Shown here piece by piece: positions 1 to 59,486 of a stretch of 64,000 nt of DNA (position 1 is its first letter; every line of letters begins with the position of its first letter). Source of the DNA: an uncultured virus (IMG/VR IMGVR_UViG_2897137741_000002) (lineage: Duplodnaviria; Heunggongvirae; Uroviricota; Caudoviricetes); the IMG/VR virus record IMGVR_UViG_2897137741_000002, positions 62,001 to 126,000 of that record. One strand, written 5' to 3'. Both the position numbers and the translations under genes were made by a program. Below the pieces are notes generated by a model. It did not search any database, was not told where the DNA came from, and saw nothing but the letters and a program-made list of their open reading frames with translations.

Positions 1-19
1 AAACACTATTCCACTTATT

Positions 20-580
20 TTACGAGTATAGAAGACTCGCTAACCCGGAAAAATTTTGATGACCGCATAATAAGCCCCAAAGCTTACAAGGGCTTTATTT
101 AAAGGGAAGGAAGACGCATCTGCCTTACCTAAGTGTAAGCCGAAGCAGTACACCGTAATTAATATTCAGGCTACATGTCACCCATAGTAAGACTGTGATG
201 GGATTCACCCTACAAAACAGCAATTTTTCAGCTTGAGTAGCATAGGTCTTACCGACATGTTTAGCCCGATAATAGCCATTTACCTGTCTCCTTAAGATAC
301 AGACATCCGAGTTAACCTCGCACCCTCATAAATGACTACTATCCGACTAACTGCAATGACCAACCGCAATTTTGTGTCAGAATGATACAGAAAATAGGGG
401 AGTAGATATTGTTTAATCAATAAAAGCTAGTCCACACAGAAGAGGAATCTCCACTAATGTTCATTCAAATTAGTCTGTATCTTCATAATGAACATTAGTC
501 GAGAACTGATATCCCATATATTAGTAATCAACGGTTGATTGACAACACCCCAATGTTGGCAATCAAATAATCTCTCTTAA
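20..580 (-). ncRNA. Candidate large structured non-coding RNA (may continue beyond window start)
   Basis: No ORF in the track. Many stems: 169-179/254-266, ~449-503, 535-566, 104-130, 133-153 (UUCG loop on minus strand). Long-range complementarities 294-304/473-483 and 187-193/246-252. Confidence 0.5.
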
Positions 581-590
581 CACCTGAAGT

Positions 591-670
591 GAATGCAGAC
601 GAGGATTTGCACCTCGCATAAGTTTACGGCCCTTCGGCTTGTATGTGTCTACCTATTCCACCACCGCATT
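591..670 (-). tRNA. tRNA-like element with a non-canonical anticodon arm
   Basis: Minus strand: acceptor AAUGCGG/CUGCAUU, U8-G9, Leu-type D arm GUGGAAUAGGUAGACAC, T arm CGAGG-UGCAAAU-CCUCG. No canonical 5-bp/7-nt anticodon arm and no encoded CCA. Confidence 0.5.
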
Positions 671-716
671 TACAGGTGAAGAGAGGGGAGAGATGCTAAT
701 CCCTCATTATAGATTG

Positions 717-992
717 TTAAGCTTTCACTGCATCTTTGAGAGCTTTTGCAGCCTTGAAGGCAGGTGCTTTTGTTGCCGGAATATCAATTTCCTCGCCTGA
801 TTGCGGATTTCTCCCTTTACGTGCTGCACGTTCGCGGACTTCAAATGTACCAACTCCAGGAATCTTGATTGATTCACCTTTTGCTAGTGTTTCAACAATA
901 ACATCAAATACTGCTTCTACTTTAGGAGTAGCTTCTTTCTTAGGAACACCTAATTTTTCTGCAACTGCTCCAACAAATTCTGTTTTGTTCAT
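717..992 (-). CDS. yonN: HU-family DNA-binding protein
   Basis: Classic HU motifs (GVGTFEVRERAARKGRNPQSGEEIDIPA); RBS GGAGG. Confidence 0.95.
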   Translation of the reverse strand: MNKTEFVGAVAEKLGVPKKEATPKVEAVFDVIVETLAKGESIKIPGVGTFEVRERAARKGRNPQSGEEIDIPATKAPAFKAAKALKDAVKA

Positions 993-1252
993 GTTTTAAT
1001 TCCTCCTAGTGATTTTGGTTATTTTTTGTTAAAGTATAATTACGGTAACGTTTGTGCTTCTATTGAAAAATGGGAGACGTACTCACCCTTATATGTGGAA
1101 ATTAGCTTTCTTTCTCCCTTATGGCGATTATCTATTTTCTGACTAAAAATCGCTCAATCCCTTGTCCCGCAAGGATTTAAAGTCCCTTGGTTTTTGCTGG
1201 TTTTTACATATAGAGCCAGAAACCCTTATGTACCAAGGGTTCAAGGCACTTT

Positions 1253-3778
1253 CTAAACCGTTACACTTCTAAATCTTCTTACTCGTTCCTTTGTTTTTTC
1301 TTTTTCTCTCTTACTTCCACACCCTTCACAAAGCCTTTGTCTATTAGAGGATGGAGAGAATAAAAGATCGCAATCATCACACCTCTTCATGTCCTTTAAA
1401 TTAACTTTTAAATTATTAAGCATAATATCACCAAAACATTCCCATAGGGTGGCTTTGAACTTGCTTTTCTTCTTGTAAAGGTGTTTAACTAAAACATCAA
1501 CTATGTATTGTTCCTTATTATGTACTTCCAGTAATCGATCCTTAATTATCTTATAAACATAAAGCTTTTGACCTGGTTTCGTTTCTTCGTCCCTATTCAT
1601 TAACCACTTTTTGTTGCGATCAAGTCTGGTATACATTTTAATTATCGATTCATCTAATCTAGTATTCTTATTTTTCAACAATAACTGATAATCAAAGTGA
1701 CCAGCGACAGACCTAAAATTAATTCTATCAGAAGGAATAATTTGTTCTAACCTGTTTACTGTACTGTTATTAAGTTTTTCAACATTATTTTCTTCTTTAT
1801 CCTTTGCATTGATGAAGAAGTAGGGGACTTTATTTTTTATGTAATCTTTGATTTGCTCATCAACATGATCAGGGCGGGTGGGCATGAAAAGCGTCTTTGC
1901 AAAATCGATAGTAAAGTTATTCTCCATGCATAACCATTTGATCACGTCCAGGTTTATATTGGCACTGTTCCATATCTTAGTGATATTGTTACTGTACTCC
2001 CCGATATTGATCCCATAAGCAAGAGTTAGTGCTTCATAGATGTTTCTGCTATTAATCTCTTGTTTCTGGGCTACTGACATTTCATAATACAAAGGAACGA
2101 TGTTCTCCATATTACGCTTGGCAATATTGACGATCAGCTCATCAGAAATAATTAAGGCCTTATCCCCGTCATTGTCAAACTGCAGCAGTTTCGATATCGG
2201 ATCATGAATACTGGTATAAACACCTGGGGTAATAAACCACTTTTCATATTCCTCATCTTTTTTGTTCCACCTAACTCCATGCTCTCTGTATAGGTGAGGA
2301 GAGCGGAGGATATCAATATACCCTTCATCATATAAAGAACAATGGACATCGCTTCCGGTGAGGAGTCCTTTCGGATTCTCAATTCCAAGAAACAATCTTT
2401 CACAAAAAGCGTATAGATCAGGACATAAATATGTATACCTGGCGTCACTGACAAGTAATTTCCCTGATTTGGCGTCCTTAATCATACTCTTCTTCTTATT
2501 CTTAATGATTTCTTTGGTATGGTCATCATTTAGCAGCTCAGGATATATTAGTAGAGCTTCTTGAAGGCTTGTCTTATGTTTATTTTTCTCGGTAGCCCCT
2601 AAAACTTTCATCATTGTTTCTTTATCAGTGCCTAATTGAGTAATCTCACTAACAGTTTTTGAGCTGATTTGTTTTAATTCCTCATCTGTGATATCAGTGA
2701 GTGTTTGTAGCATCTGGTAAGTCAGTTTTCCCTCAACAGATGGATCTTCTTCATTTAATTTAGCTCCTAAACATCCATACTTTTTAAATTTATAGCGATA
2801 ATCATCCCATGAATCATAGTACTTCCACATCTTAAACTGGCTTTTCGTAAAAATTATTTGGATATCATCTTTAATAATGTCCCATTCTTTACCGTAGACG
2901 TCCTTAACTATAAATGAACTGTGTTTTTCAGCAAACTTTCTAAAATCAAATGGAACTAGCAGACCCTTAACCCAAGGTAATCTGACCATAAAGCTTTTCT
3001 GGCTCAAACTGGGAAGCATCATTCCGCAACCATCTGTATGTTCTATAGGAATATCCATAACTTTACGAGTGATTTCATATGTATCACGGTCAATATAATC
3101 AACCAGGCTGGAAACGTTTGTTTCTAAGTCATTTACGACAATTGTTTTATCAATATCAATTTCCCATGGACTGCTGGCGCTATTAGATAAGGCCATGTAG
3201 CTATTCCATTTGTTTATGCTGCTTCCACCTTGAGCATTGATTTGCTCCACACTAAGGCCACAAGTTAAAGCATTTTGATACTTATCTAAGGTGCTTTGCT
3301 TGATAAAACAAGATTTTTTGGTTCGTATTTGACCGGCACTGCTAGTGAAATAAACGTATTTCTCATTGTTATGTATGAATCCTTTATCAATAATGTCCCT
3401 TAAAATTTGAAAGTGATAAGTTTGGACAACCATGATTTCTTCAGAGAGAGAGTTTTCTTTGATTCCCAACGTTCGAGTTAAGACTGAATCAAATAATGAA
3501 ATCACATTATTATCTTTCAGGGAATCTGTTCTAAGTGTTCTTATTTGATTATGATTGTTAAAGGCGTTATAAAGATTTTCTTTTAAGGAAATAATCCTTT
3601 GCGTTATGTACTTCTTATGTTTTTTATCAACATGTTCAAGTTTTTTGAGATGATCTCTGTACCTATATGATTTTAAAATCTTGTTATGTAATTTGTTTTC
3701 TTGATCATTATAAAAAGCAGAAGTATCAATACTGTAAATATGTACTTGCTTATTTAGGCCATCTTTTTTTCCTTTCAA
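1253..3778 (-). CDS. yonO: Single-subunit phage RNA polymerase YonO
   Basis: 841 aa, catalytic DxDGD (FDNDGD), C-terminal CxxC pairs, SPbeta synteny. Confidence 0.93.
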
Positions 3779-4067: not shown

Positions 4068-4897
4068 TTGTTTTTTCGCTAGTATGTTAACAGCTCCAGG
4101 TTATTGAGATGAATTCTAAGCCATATAAGTGATTATCGTAATCTAAAAACATGCCTATCGTAAATAATATGATAGAGTTCAAAAACCCAGTAAACGTAAG
4201 GGTATTTGATGCATCGAATGGTGATTAGGGATAAAACGATCGTAAAACATAAGTGAGAGTAGGGGGAAGTGGCTGTTTTATCTAAATATTGATGAAAACG
4301 AGGTAATTTGAAAAGGGGAAAACGTTGATATAAAAGGCTTTTACGATAGCGATTACGATGTGAAAAAGTGTGATTTTGAGGTGAAATTAGGAAAATGAAA
4401 ATTTGGATAGGGTGTGGAAATGGAAGTGCTATGGGTACATCCGTTCCCTTTATTTTACCATTAGATGTAAATATACCCCCATATATTGGTATTGTAATAC
4501 GTGTATAAGGAACATTATACGTGCATTTAATGACTTGGACAGGTCTGCACCAGTGCTATCATAATTCCAGGCCAAACACAAGAATTAATTTTTAAAAAAT
4601 AAATTGGTTATCAATTTGAAAATGAATAACCATTCATTAAAAATAATCGTTATTATAACGAATCCGAGGGAATCGAAGACATATTTATTTTATCCTTATC
4701 CTAATCACTATACATAACCATATCTTATCCAATCATATATCCTACACTAACCACTCATCACACTCACACGCTCTCAAATTGAATTTAACACGTCTCTAAG
4801 CATCTTTAATCGATTCCATATCCAATTACATTCTTGTTCATTCAAACAGCACACAAAGCATCTCAACACCATCCATCAACACACAAATATCTCACTT

Positions 4898-4970: not shown

Positions 4971-5147
4971 GTGCTTGAGAAAGTGGGTATCATAGTTGCT
5001 TTCCTCATATCTTTAACGGTTCTTACAATCAACAGTCTAACAATAGTTGAGAAGGTAAGAAACCTAAAGAATGGGACAAGCAAAAAGAAAAAGCGTATAC
5101 GCAAGCGGCTCCGACCAAAGAGACAACGCCAACGTATACGCCGATGA
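4971..5147 (+). CDS. yonT: Type I toxin YonT
   Basis: 58 aa from GTG; hydrophobic N-terminus and highly basic C-terminal tail (KKKKRIRKRLRPKRQRQRIRR). Confidence 0.9.
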   Translation: MLEKVGIIVAFLISLTVLTINSLTIVEKVRNLKNGTSKKKKRIRKRLRPKRQRQRIRR

Positions 5148-5250
5148 GAGATAAGCTAAAGGGGAATGAACTTCTCCTTTAGTTCCTACCCATATTATAA
5201 CATGATCAAGCACATTGCAAACATGAAACGATTCTCATTATGGTTTACCC
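5080..5250 (-). ncRNA. Probable SR6-like antisense antitoxin RNA (ends approximate)
   Basis: Inferred from the known SPbeta yonT/yoyJ/SR6 arrangement; hairpin at ~5154-5184. Confidence 0.4.
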
Positions 5251-6949: not shown

Positions 6950-7163
6950 TTAAAGAGAATAAACCTCTTAAACTCTTAAAAAAGCTCAATAATACCAAGG
7001 GTTTTTCCGTCTAAGTCTTTAAGAGAGACAAAAATAAATTAAATAATAAAATAAGAGAATGGGGGTGCTGCTAATTGTTCAAAACGGTTCGTTCCTCACC
7101 TGAACAATTTTTGCTCACACCACCCCCAAACCCCCTCATGAGCAATTAATATTAACACTAAAT

Positions 7164-7184
7164 CAAATACAAAAAATATGTATT
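7164..7184 (+). promoter_or_regulatory. SPBRE-like operator before a SigA promoter (partial second copy at 7228)
   Basis: CAAATACAAAAAATATGTATT followed by TTGAAC-17-TATAAT. Confidence 0.7.
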
Positions 7185-7264
7185 TAATTATTGAACATTA
7201 TAGATTATCAAGTTATAATATAAATAACAAATACAAATAATATAGAAAAAAGGGGATATTTAAA

Positions 7265-7702
7265 ATGAAAACAACACTTAAAAAATTGTCTCAAAAAGAA
7301 CTTCATAATCTAATTGGAAGTACTGTTATATTAACAGAAAATCACACGACGATTTCTGGAGACAGAGTTTTAAAGAAAAAAGGATCTCAAGGGGTACTGG
7401 TTGATTATCAAATGTTTTGGGGCGAGGCCACCATCCAATTTGGCAAAAGAAATTACAAAGTTAGCATGGACATTGTTCAGCTTTTAGAGCAATCAGGGGA
7501 AATCGAACAAAAGAGCAGCGATGTATCCAAAAATGCAGAAACAGAAAAAGCTATTGAAAAGGAGTACATTTTCAAAGAGACAAGAACAGTAGACCAAATT
7601 CTTGATAAACATAATGATTATATGACTTTGTATAGAATCTTTAATGATGATGCTTATTTAGAAAAAGCAAGACAAACGTTACAGCAACTGAAAAAGTTAT
7701 AA
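7265..7702 (+). CDS. Hypothetical protein
   Basis: 145 aa, RBS AAGGGG, promoter upstream. Confidence 0.75.
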   Translation: MKTTLKKLSQKELHNLIGSTVILTENHTTISGDRVLKKKGSQGVLVDYQMFWGEATIQFGKRNYKVSMDIVQLLEQSGEIEQKSSDVSKNAETEKAIEKEYIFKETRTVDQILDKHNDYMTLYRIFNDDAYLEKARQTLQQLKKL

Positions 7703-7750
7703 GTGAATCTAAATAAAACAACAATTTTAATCAGAAAAGAGGTGTGATAG

Positions 7751-7930
7751 ATGAGTTGGGGTATATCACCAGATGCGACAAATAAAGAGAAATTGAAGGC
7801 TGAAATGGCTGATTACTTAAATGGTTTAAACTCAACAGGAGCAATAAGCTATGCAATATACAGTGAAGCATTTGATGTCTCTATGAATTTACTTGACAAA
7901 ATGTATGACTTAGGAAAGCTTGAAAAATGA
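7751..7930 (+). CDS. Hypothetical protein (59 aa, not in ORF track)
   Basis: MSWGISPDATNKEKLKAEMADYLNG...; RBS GAGGTG. Confidence 0.7.
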   Translation: MSWGISPDATNKEKLKAEMADYLNGLNSTGAISYAIYSEAFDVSMNLLDKMYDLGKLEK

Positions 7931-57172: not shown

Positions 57173-59486
57173 TGAGATCATGATTCAGAAAGATGGGAAG
57201 TATCAATTCCAAAAGGATAAGGAGGCCGTACATAGTTACTTTGTTGACTACATTAATCAAAACACAGTCTTTTTCCATGATTTAAAAGAGAAGTTGGATT
57301 ATCTGATTAAAAATGATTATTACGAAGAAGAATTCCTAAGCAAATATACATTTGAACAGATTAAATCAATTTATAAGATTGCTTACAGTTACAAATTCAG
57401 ATTCCCATCTTTTATGAGTGCATTTAAGTTCTACAATGACTACGCATTGAAGACAAACGATAAAACAAAGATCCTGGAAAGGTACGAGGATCGTGTCTCA
57501 ATTGTAGCTCTATATTGTGCTGATGGGGATTACGAGAAAGCAGTTGAGGAAGTACATACTATGATGAAACAAGAGTATCAGCCGGCAACACCTACATTCC
57601 TTAATGCTGGACGTAAGCGAAGAGGTGAAATGGTGAGCTGCTTCTTACTTGAAGTGGATGACAGTTTGAATGCTATCTCTAGAGCCATTGATATCTCCAT
57701 GCAGCTTTCTAAGCTAGGTGGAGGAGTAGCATTAAATCTAAACAAACTAAGAGCCAAAGGTGAAGCCATTAAAGATGTTGAGAATGCGACAAAAGGCGTT
57801 GTAGGCGTCATGAAGCTATTGGATAATGCCTTCAGATATGCCGACCAAATGGGTTGATTTGGCCCCTTTCATCAGCAATGGTGATCGAAAACCTCTTTAA
57901 TTCATGGGAACTCCTACAGGGACAATCATGAGCGAAGCAAGACTAAGTCTTGAACGTGCAACGACTAGCCGAAAGGCGTAGGCTGCAAGCTATTGGCAGT
58001 CGAAACAGGAGGCACCCTTAGAGGGTGAAGATATAGTCTAACCTTCATGGTAACATGAAGCAGCCATATGGCGGGGCGTGCTTAGCGAACACGTCTGAAT
58101 GGTCTGCAAAGACAAGGATCAGGAGCAGTTTATCTAAGTGTATTCCATCCAGACATTACAGATTTCCTAGATACCAAAAAAATAAGTGCTGATGAAGATG
58201 TCCGAGTTAAAACATTATCTATTGGTGTAGTTGTTCCAGATAAATTTATTGAACTTGCAAGGGAAGACAAGGATTATTACATGTTCTATCCGCATTCAGT
58301 ATACAAGGAATATGGACAGTATCTTGATGAGATGAGCATCAATGAAATGTATGATGAGCTTGTCGAAAACCCTAGGGTTAGAAAAGCTAAAGGGAATACT
58401 CGGAAGCTGTTAGAGCAATTGGCCATTCTAAGAAGCGAATCTGGCTATCCGTATATTATGTTCGCTGACAATGTAAATAAAGTGCATCCAAATGAACATA
58501 TTTCAAAAGTGAAGTTTTCAAATTTGTGTTCTGAAGTCCTCCAATCATCACAAGTATCAGTTTATACGGATTACGATAAAGAGGATGAAATTGGTTTAGA
58601 TATCTCCTGCAATCTTGGCTCAATGAACATTGTAAATGTAATGAGTAATCAATCAATTGCTTCAACAGTCAGAATAGCCATTGACTCACTGACAACAGTC
58701 ACAAGGAAAACAAACATTGTAAATGCTCCAGCTGTTGCGAGAGCAAATACACTAATGAGATCAATTGGTCTAGGGCAGATGAACCTCCATGGATTTCTAG
58801 CTCAAAATAATATTGCTTATGAAAGTGAAGAAGCTAAGGATTTTGCAAATACATACTTTATGATGGTTAACTTCTACTCCCTGCAGCGTTCTATGGAAAT
58901 TGCACGAGAAACAGGGGAGACATACTACAAGTTTGATGGTTCAACTTATAAATCAGGTGAGTATTTCGAAAAGTACGTAACAAATGATTATAGCCCTCAG
59001 TTTGAAAAGGTTAAAAAGCTATTTGGAGATCAACATATTCCTAACATTGAAGATTGGACGAAACTTAAAGAAGATGTAATGAAATATGGCTTATACCATT
59101 CGTATAGACAGGCTATTGCACCTACGGGAAGCATCTCATATGTTCAATCATCTACAGCAGGTGTAATGCCAATTATGGAGAGAATTGAGGAACGAACATA
59201 CGGAAACAGTAAGACATATTATCCAATGCCAGGTTTATCGGCTAAGAATTGGTTCTTCTACAAAGAAGCATACGACATGGATATGTTTAAGGTAGTTGAT
59301 CTTATTGCAACGATTCAGCAGCATGTCGATCAAGGAATTTCATTTACCTTGTTCCTGAAAGATACGATGACAACGAGAGACCTGAATAGAATAGATCTCT
59401 ACGCTCATCATCGAGGAATTAAGACCTTGTACTATGCGAGAACTAAGGATACTGGTCAGGATTCATGTCTATCTTGTGTTGTCTGA
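57135..59486 (+). CDS. nrdE: Class Ib RNR alpha subunit, spliced (exons 57135-57854 and 58107-59486; 699 aa; no intein)
   Basis: ATPTF, SCF, joined ADQMG|QRQG, FSNLCSE, APTGS, C-terminal CLSC. Confidence 0.92.
57855..58106 (+). mobile_element. Group I intron in nrdE (252 nt, no ORF)
   Basis: 5' splice after U, terminal G, AAGATATAGTCT P7-like element; removal restores the reading frame. Confidence 0.9.

Follow-up and report, generated by a model that had tools for sequence, protein, structure and literature searches.

The yonN-yonK interval and its transcribed strand

The window, that is, the whole stretch of DNA analyzed here, comprises 64,000 nucleotides (G000:C1:62001-126000) of a provirus of 137.6 kb. 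At its start lies a structured tract, bounded by yonN and by a YonK-like gene whose start lies outside the window, some 720 bases ahead of it, and the same gene order is found in SPbeta. The tract extends from about position 680 down to about 720 bases past the window start, and its features are listed in Table 1. Within 20-580 the sole open reading frame of at least 40 aa was 292-420 (minus strand, 42 aa, TTG). By blastn, the tract matched 34 of 50,697 phage records, which were 25 SPbeta-like phages and 9 large phages. Positions 12-555 were about 88% identical in SPbeta; the part common to the 9 large phages was only 95-163, which in Goe3 lies inside a tRNA cluster.

Table 1. Features of the interval, in window coordinates
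Feature	Position	Strand	Description	Basis
yonN	717..992	-	HU-like DNA-binding protein; same-strand gene upstream of the tract	Pfam Bac_DNA_binding 3e-33; SPbeta annotation
Module A	590..678	-	tRNA-shaped: acceptor-like stem, D-arm-like and T-arm-like hairpins, variable middle	read from sequence; outside the span of the preliminary description
Hairpin	535..566	-	variable among relatives	sequence and relatives
Unit B	446..528	-	short hairpin and 18-20-bp helix 506-487/465-446; sister of unit C; RNase III-like	homologue pairing
Unit C	261..372	-	short hairpin 371-349 and 22-bp helix 350-329/282-261 with invariant G.G mismatch; two small inner hairpins	25 distinct arm pairs
Mapped 5' end	340	-	equivalent of the SPbeta RNA 5' end mapped by Forrest et al. 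as YonO start (168 position 2225998)	coordinate transfer
Module D	166..269	-	three-way junction; closing helix 260-254/179-174 (extendable by 269-262/173-166); 8-bp pseudoknot 253-246/193-186; stem 202-198/185-181	31-sequence alignment
Module E	95..162	-	hairpin 153-133 and terminator-like hairpin 130-101; orphan in phage	Abi_2/AbiF gene association elsewhere
Module F	49..102	-	RNA found after lone PemK/MazF-like genes; orphan in phage	HMM and motif at PemK loci
Hairpin module	8..48	-	conserved hairpin (23-39); the array continues past the window start up to the yonK-like gene	homologue loci

A preliminary description of 20-580 had proposed a large structured RNA co-transcribed with yonN. All the strings and pairings it quoted were present, including 169-179 with 254-266 (2-nt bulge) and 187-193 with 246-252, and so were its hairpins at 23-39, 72-95, 104-130, 133-153, 449-503 and 535-566; the longest helix of the tract, that of unit C, was absent from it. 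The helices are therefore real, and a structured non-coding RNA downstream of yonN and on the yonN strand was supported, but a single ornate RNA was not: the RNA proved to be a minus-strand modular array. The tRNA neighbourhood that is frequent for large ornate phage RNAs was not found, as ARAGORN called no tRNA in the window and only the module E homologues of Goe3-like phages sit among tRNAs.

The strand was determined from the pairing of homologues. In helix C, the homologue cells contained 64 G-U and 8 A-C (25 distinct arm pairs), and in helix B they contained 34 G-U and 2 A-C (19 pairs, one of which is the same locus read on both strands). Because G-U far exceeds A-C in both helices and the published transcript runs in the same direction, the RNA strand is minus. 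Folding of window positions 1-720 against shuffles (20 per strand) gave z values of -5.04 for the plus strand and -2.77 for the minus strand. Both strands are thus more stable than their shuffles, and single-sequence folding favours the plus strand, contrary to the homologue pairing evidence.

Rfam searches at gathering and at relaxed E-value thresholds gave no family for any module, whether in the window, in Goe3 or at the stand-alone E, D and F loci, in agreement with the earlier statement that no family could be assigned. A scan of 1-1400 for sigma-70 promoters and terminators gave no signal above shuffles. Elsewhere in the window, Rfam matched the SR6 antitoxin (5082-5185, minus strand) and a group I intron (57808-58060, plus strand). 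In many relatives (L019-L022, L038, L078 and L160-L162) the yonO gene contains insertions that are probably introns, a few of them ORF-bearing, and such a yonO is annotated as split, for example in phi3T. For the SPbeta locus, an 'unannotated non-coding RNA' has already been mentioned by Forrest et al. 2017 (PMC5467207), and tables 2 and 3 of Irnov 2010 (PMC2965217) list no sRNA for the interval in uninduced cells.

Modular composition of the tract

We fetched 146 loci with YonO and ran the module HMMs against 149 loci. The HMMs matched about 42-52 of the 149, all of them B. subtilis-group or pumilus-type prophages, and distant YonO phage loci gave no match except one weak match to module A. 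The modules were lost individually. In L004 and SPbetaL2 the yonN stop is directly joined to E, so SPbetaL2 is without B-D; SPbetaL4, SPbetaL7, L017 and L021 are without C, L030 is without C and D, L020 without B-E and L007 without F, and in L034 nothing is left but the element nearest to yonK. Each of the modules D, E, F and G was found alone in other contexts, and 531-98 was retained as a block in pumilus-type prophages. The data showed that the tract between yonN and yonK is a modular array and not one giant RNA. According to the report on the SPbetaL phages, these were plaque-purified three times (10.1101/2023.05.01.538930); SPbetaL2 was counted among them through its GenBank record and the count of 11 SPbeta-group phages. 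Because SPbetaL2 lacks B-D, and L4 and L7 lack C, these modules are dispensable for plaque formation on the laboratory host.

Further elements were seen in other loci. Module G, which corresponds to window -60 to -290, stands alone in L156 (about 1490-1625, minus strand) in another phage-like context with a terminator after it. Directly before yonK, an element with a 20-bp closing helix (L001 about 7250-7370, minus strand) was present in every SPbeta-like locus checked and persists in L034, where all other modules are lost; a sequence within it is exactly complementary to the 9-mer at window 348-340. This pre-yonK element is the best candidate for an essential late cis element or YonO promoter. 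In Paenibacillus-type YonO phages (L072, L075, L076 and L093) the HU gene is followed by another conserved non-coding tract of 420 nt (about 7090-7510), which is raised in GC and gave no match to the array modules.

Modules A to D

Relatives of module A were found at many related loci, in phi3T-like phages, in the pumilus-type L083 (about 7740-7875) and in Goe3 (L003 about 4160-4305), and the window copy received no ARAGORN or Rfam call. In helix C, positions -7, -5, -3 to +1, +7, +8 and +10, counted from the mapped 5' end, were paired in all 25 distinct arm pairs, and at +5 a compensatory change from G-C to U-A occurred in 3. The hairpin upstream of helix C was retained with altered sequence in 10 of 10 loci folded.

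The alignment of module D (31 sequences) had 98% of cells paired, against 36-51% in slid controls; the sequences are related, and the shuffle control is therefore not a probability. Nine of its 19 pairs were changed on both sides and the 8-bp pseudoknot was 100% paired. Module D is a covarying pseudoknot, which bears out the pseudoknotted fold of the preliminary description. Five of 57 viral pattern matches were dropped as chance-like in coding DNA, L280 was also excluded from the alignment (A1), and the pattern matched 1 of 401 Bacilli genomes. In L154 (1482-1577, minus strand) module D occurs alone, with its closing helix fully changed, in a different prophage-like context and with a terminator downstream, and this stand-alone copy has no toxin neighbour.

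HDV-like ribozymes are marked by a catalytic C in J4/2 and by the active-site elements L3 and P1.1. A circularly permuted HDV-like ribozyme was considered for module D and rejected: the topology fits, but the junction base varies between U and C and alignment A1 contains no L3 or P1.1 equivalent. Rfam gave no ribozyme match to the module. A blastn search of plasmids with 1-580 found no cognate locus for C or D, and its 43 Acinetobacter plasmid matches at E 2 were dismissed as chance.

Module E accompanies a clade of Abi_2/AbiF genes

In module E, 91% of cells were paired, 10 of 18 pairs were compensatory and both stems were kept. Its pattern matched 59 viral sequences, 25 metagenome sequences and 7 of 91 genomes. 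Copies outside the array have a -10-like box just upstream and a U-tract after the second stem. Eight of the 26 distinct non-array copies (DNA pattern) adjoin an Abi_2 gene, 7 of them about 50 bases after its stop and 1 upstream, and Abi_2 is present in just 9 of the 91 Bacillaceae genomes. The other 18 (19 of 27 with L436) have varied neighbours or none in the available DNA, which is in some cases a short contig; the copy on a Priestia megaplasmid has no Abi_2 neighbour. Orphan copies with their own promoter were seen in L331, L332, L337, L339 and L436, in Priestia-like DNA including the megaplasmid, beside flagellin-laminin G or DinB genes.

The association was also examined from the protein side. 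Module E was found in 28 of 34 loci fetched by Abi_2 protein alone, a count in which one match (L368) belongs to the training set and many rows are near-duplicates. All 28 were on the strand of the gene and 27 lay shortly after it; 15 scored below E 1e-4 and the rest, at E 0.007-0.085, had the same place and strand, the scores of the module E model (R1) resting mostly on sequence. Three of the 6 loci without E end within or just after the gene. The other Bacillaceae Abi_2 clade had E in 1 of 10 loci and carries the Rfam abiF motif instead. Module E is thus an RNA that accompanies a clade of Abi_2/AbiF toxin genes, and this clade was found in 1 of 91 Bacillaceae genomes.

The E-linked protein matched PADLOC AbiD (8e-29) and resembles PbAbiF 8VZ6 (E 0.003), and an RNxxxH motif, which agrees with the HEPN pattern R-x4-6-H, was present in 4 of 4 proteins checked. 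AbiF toxins are described as HEPN RNases that are neutralised by a bound ncRNA (PMC12737573; 10.1101/2025.04.15.648962). Module E did not match the Rfam abiF family RF03085, which did match the other-clade loci L353 and L356 used as a positive control. The phage genome (G000) has no Abi_2 gene. Module E also occurs in Goe3-like Herelleviridae, within tRNA clusters, and the window copy has changes at otherwise near-invariant positions. In L206 (1117-1245, 1682-1743 and 2025-2089) and L170 (2261-2326), a DUF3800-VIII RNA immediately precedes an E copy; twister and hammerhead ribozymes are found near by, which makes this another phage RNA cluster.

Module F follows lone PemK/MazF-like genes

The only stand-alone copy of module F (L157) follows a 205-aa PemK/MazF-like ORF (3e-11). 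An HMM built from phage copies only matched F in 5 of 11 PemK loci, 70-140 bases past the stop codon and with E 7.5e-14 to 1e-4. Three more had the same two anchor motifs by eye, which brings the count to 8 of 11, and the loci of the 3 most distant PemK proteins had no F. When the same HMM was run on 44 Abi_2 control loci, none scored under E 1, except for the array locus L363, which was part of the same set. Module F follows lone PemK/MazF-like genes. The best match (E 7.5e-14) was on pSX01705-2, and because this is a B. subtilis plasmid, the F-PemK system exists in the host species.

No protein antitoxin was annotated beside the PemK-like gene in 4 of 4 plasmids opened, whose gene tables are incomplete. 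In the plasmid PemK loci, boxes resembling a promoter, a degenerate second repeat and a terminator were seen, and 7 F-PemK loci gave no Rfam match at E up to 1. The PemK gene is absent from G000. Module F is also present in three phages of 153-157 kb. In the window copy, changes fall at otherwise near-invariant positions and create the hairpin at 72-95.

The RNA 5' end at position 340

Position 340 was placed by transfer from SPbeta: over an aligned 1058 bases at 100% identity, G042:C1:2225616 is the base that immediately follows yonN, and the YonO start falls at SPbeta locus position 4329, which is window 340. Forrest et al. found this 5' end to be enriched by Terminator exonuclease and confirmed it by primer extension as a start (PMC5467207). 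Their peer-review file records no open complex and much non-specific initiation in vitro, and the authors suggest there that a special DNA structure may be needed (PMC5467207). The passages of Forrest et al. on this locus give no structure, modules or function for the RNA (PMC5467207).

In the window, 340 falls between two primers of Forrest et al. (PMC5467207) and splits the 22-bp helix C into 10 bp below and 12 bp above. Because the pairing below the end is kept (25/25, at most positions, with a U-G/U-A exchange) and the upstream hairpin is kept with changed sequence, an RNA spanning 340 exists. A base-paired 5' end resists Terminator exonuclease.

We scored the helices for RNase III sites by the box rules of E. 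coli (PMC1540722), with the distal-box position +9/+10 inferred in part from the numbering of that paper. By these rules the mapped end in SPbeta was the top of 26 scored registers (4/6 box rules and 2/2 middle-box pairs), with the proximal-box G-C and the distal-box U-G lacking. In the window, by the same rules, the 340 register was second (5/8; 3/6 box pairs) to a register atop the 3' arm (6/8). The 12 bp above 340 agree with the RNase III requirement for at least 11 bp of helix beyond the cut. In the lower half-site, +1 is a C-G pair and +2 a G.G mismatch, which would favour a single nick. In the sister helix B, the equivalent register is at 496, and the best register of the unit was a cut before 496 (5/6 box rules and 1/2 middle-box pairs). 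B. subtilis RNase III is reported to cut comparable intramolecular helices with similar box preferences (10.1101/2023.03.12.532304). Directly after yonO, a further helix (window about 1150-1250, minus strand; L002 5234-5126; L083 6502-6610) agreed with 6/6 RNase III box rules in SPbeta and L083, which suggests a T7-like processing of the yonO-yonN operon.

An own-genome search with the 9-mer at 348-340 gave 3 exact and 19 one-mismatch occurrences, against 24 in the control, and thus no promoter signal. The palindrome CCCTT-AAGGG, with 4 occurrences in the genome, was rejected as a late-gene motif. A 6S-like or R-loop role was also considered as a candidate for the inverted repeat around 340. 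We give a processing cut at 340 an even chance, because, among other evidence, viable phages without the site exist; a true start appears clearly less probable, and both together, or another origin, decidedly unlikely.

If 340 is a true start, the tract may be mainly a YonO late promoter with a cis-acting folded leader. B and C would then act as hairpin promoters or as sister promoter units, and the folds further downstream would regulate how far transcription reads through into the head genes. A transcript from 340 would start exactly at the base of the 12-bp stem and would free 269-262 to extend module D, and the sequence from -8 to +3 is nearly invariant. Together with the enriched, primer-extended end and the special DNA structure suggested by its discoverers, these points favour such a leader. 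However, SPbetaL2 has no B, C or D, and L4 and L7 have no C, so 340 cannot be the sole late promoter. The G-U-rich pairing retained upstream of 340 also speaks against the leader, and it leaves the toxin linkage of E and F elsewhere unexplained. We regard it as unlikely as the main role of the tract, and it can be compatible with the decoy role considered below.

A possible decoy role for E and F

On the strength of their gene neighbours elsewhere, it seems slightly more likely than not that E and F are orphan antitoxins of a type III-like kind, with which the phage would counter abortive infection by a decoy mechanism. The array would be transcribed on the minus strand during lytic growth, E being an orphan antitoxin RNA for the AbiF/AbiD HEPN RNase clade and F one for the lone PemK/MazF-fold RNase clade. 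Made in excess by the phage, E and F might bind and silence the toxins of the host or its plasmids, which would otherwise abort the infection once the short-lived antitoxin RNA of the host decays. The sister helices B and C would most likely be RNase III sites at which the long transcript is cut, so that the downstream piece (C-D-E-F) starts with a 5' end protected by base pairing, and 340 would be such a cut. The same orphans, E and F, have been collected by two unrelated phage groups, the SPbeta-like phages and large Bacillus phages. DUF3800-VIII and skipping-rope RNAs, which have a known association with particular proteins, sit in neighbouring arrays, and by analogy we would guess that D, A and the remaining modules are decoys for other RNA-guarded systems.

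Several observations stand against a decoy role. Module E is often an orphan outside phages too (18/26 without an Abi_2 neighbour), just 1 of 91 Bacillaceae genomes yielded the Abi_2 clade linked to E, so that its presence in the hosts of the phage is putative, and the window copies of E and F are altered at near-invariant positions. A late transcript might also come too late. These facts could also describe leftovers or passengers without a lytic anti-defence role, either antitoxins acquired in cassettes from which the toxin has since disappeared or antitoxins retained because they counter plasmid addiction in lysogens; the many orphan non-phage copies of E, the free deletion of modules and the drift of the window copies fit this account. 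Against it, the phage copies have lost the promoters they once had, and two unrelated phage groups hold them closely spaced within lytically transcribed RNA; compensatory changes persist among them, and the tables cited above (PMC2965217, tables 2-3) list no sRNA for the interval in uninduced cells. We consider passengers quite unlikely and retain the decoy role as the better account.

A fuller picture can be offered tentatively, at somewhat less than an even chance: the array of SPbeta-like and Goe3-like Bacillus phages may be an anti-defence island made solely of RNA, shuffled in its order and processed by RNase III, whose modules are all antitoxin RNAs captured from elsewhere (E against the AbiF clade, F against the PemK-like clade, and perhaps D, A and the downstream modules against undescribed systems), and the published YonO promoter position would be a processing cut.

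Significance and comparison with known systems

Among the papers and supplements searched, mainly open-access ones, we found none on these modules or on orphan AbiF or PemK antitoxin RNAs in SPbeta-like phages, and 6 files of the Fremin and Kyrpides csRNA supplements gave 0 matches for 6 contig ids. The locus had been noted previously and left unexplained; what is new is the links of E to AbiF and of F to PemK, which give these two modules a concrete, testable role. Phage escape by an antitoxin-mimicking RNA is known from one laboratory-evolved case; if the model prophage SPbeta does carry several natural decoys in one array, such escape would be a routine strategy. The ncRNA clusters that abound in large phages and lack an explanation would also acquire a function, and one could work back from phage RNA arrays to RNA-guarded defence systems that are still undescribed. 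Two families emerge as candidate protein-RNA toxin-antitoxin systems that are not in Rfam, one in the AbiF lineage, which is linked to the origins of Cas13, and one with a PemK annotated as type II; they can be tested in B. subtilis 168, and natural deletion phages exist. A processing cut at 340 would be a possible reason why the YonO promoter has failed in vitro reconstitution.

Like GOLLD (RF02032) and ROOL (RF03087), the tract is a long structured phage non-coding RNA, but it differs in being modular, with no covariance model match (neither GOLLD nor ROOL appeared even with E values of up to 10 allowed) and no single domain architecture; it neither belongs to these families nor forms a conserved unit with conserved long-range pairings. 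The long-range pairing of 473-483 with 294-304, put forward in the preliminary description, is an exact 11-nt complement, but its conservation across homologues did not hold: it was fully Watson-Crick in 2 of 24 distinct homologue pairs, reached at least 10/11 with G-U in 6 of 24 and showed no covariation, and a distant exact inverted repeat of 11 nt arose in 3 of 200 mononucleotide shuffles of 20-580. One large, ornate, GOLLD/ROOL-like RNA of about 560 nt or more, joined by such pairings, is thus very improbable: the dense structure, the conservation of 12-555 in SPbeta and of 531-98 in pumilus-type prophages as one block, and the partial retention of the kissing pair in a subtilis-type subgroup speak for it, but modules that are lost independently and stand alone elsewhere, and a kiss that is rarely intact, do not. 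The Kayvirus lncRNA1/2, described as long structured phage non-coding tracts that are abundant during lytic growth (PMC11598898), resemble the tract in being long structured phage non-coding RNA; the tract differs in being modular.

In module E the nearest likeness is to the AbiF-AbiFr and RCd22-AbiF systems (RF03085; 10.1101/2025.04.15.648962, PMC12737573), as described there, which also have a small stem-loop RNA, bounded by promoter and terminator, beside an Abi_2 HEPN gene. In contrast, E is unmatched by RF03085 and lies mostly after the gene, and the phage copy has no toxin.

Type III toxin-antitoxin systems with MazF-fold toxins include ToxIN, CptIN and TenpIN, and Rfam has a pemK motif. 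Module F resembles them in that a MazF/PemK-fold gene stands alone beside an RNA that is bounded by a promoter and has a degenerate second repeat as well as a terminator, but its RNA lies downstream of the toxin and has no Rfam match, and the F-linked protein is annotated as type II.

The closest parallel to the whole array is the pseudo-ToxI of phage PhiTE, reported as a phage RNA that resembles a type III antitoxin and allows escape from abortive infection (PMC3475682). Both are phage-borne antitoxin-like RNAs, the decoy role here being proposed from sequence. As described, pseudo-ToxI arose by repeat expansion in the laboratory or by capture of one antitoxin (PMC3475682), whereas in the wild phages studied here two antitoxin-like RNAs, unrelated to each other, are each present once within a shuffled array.
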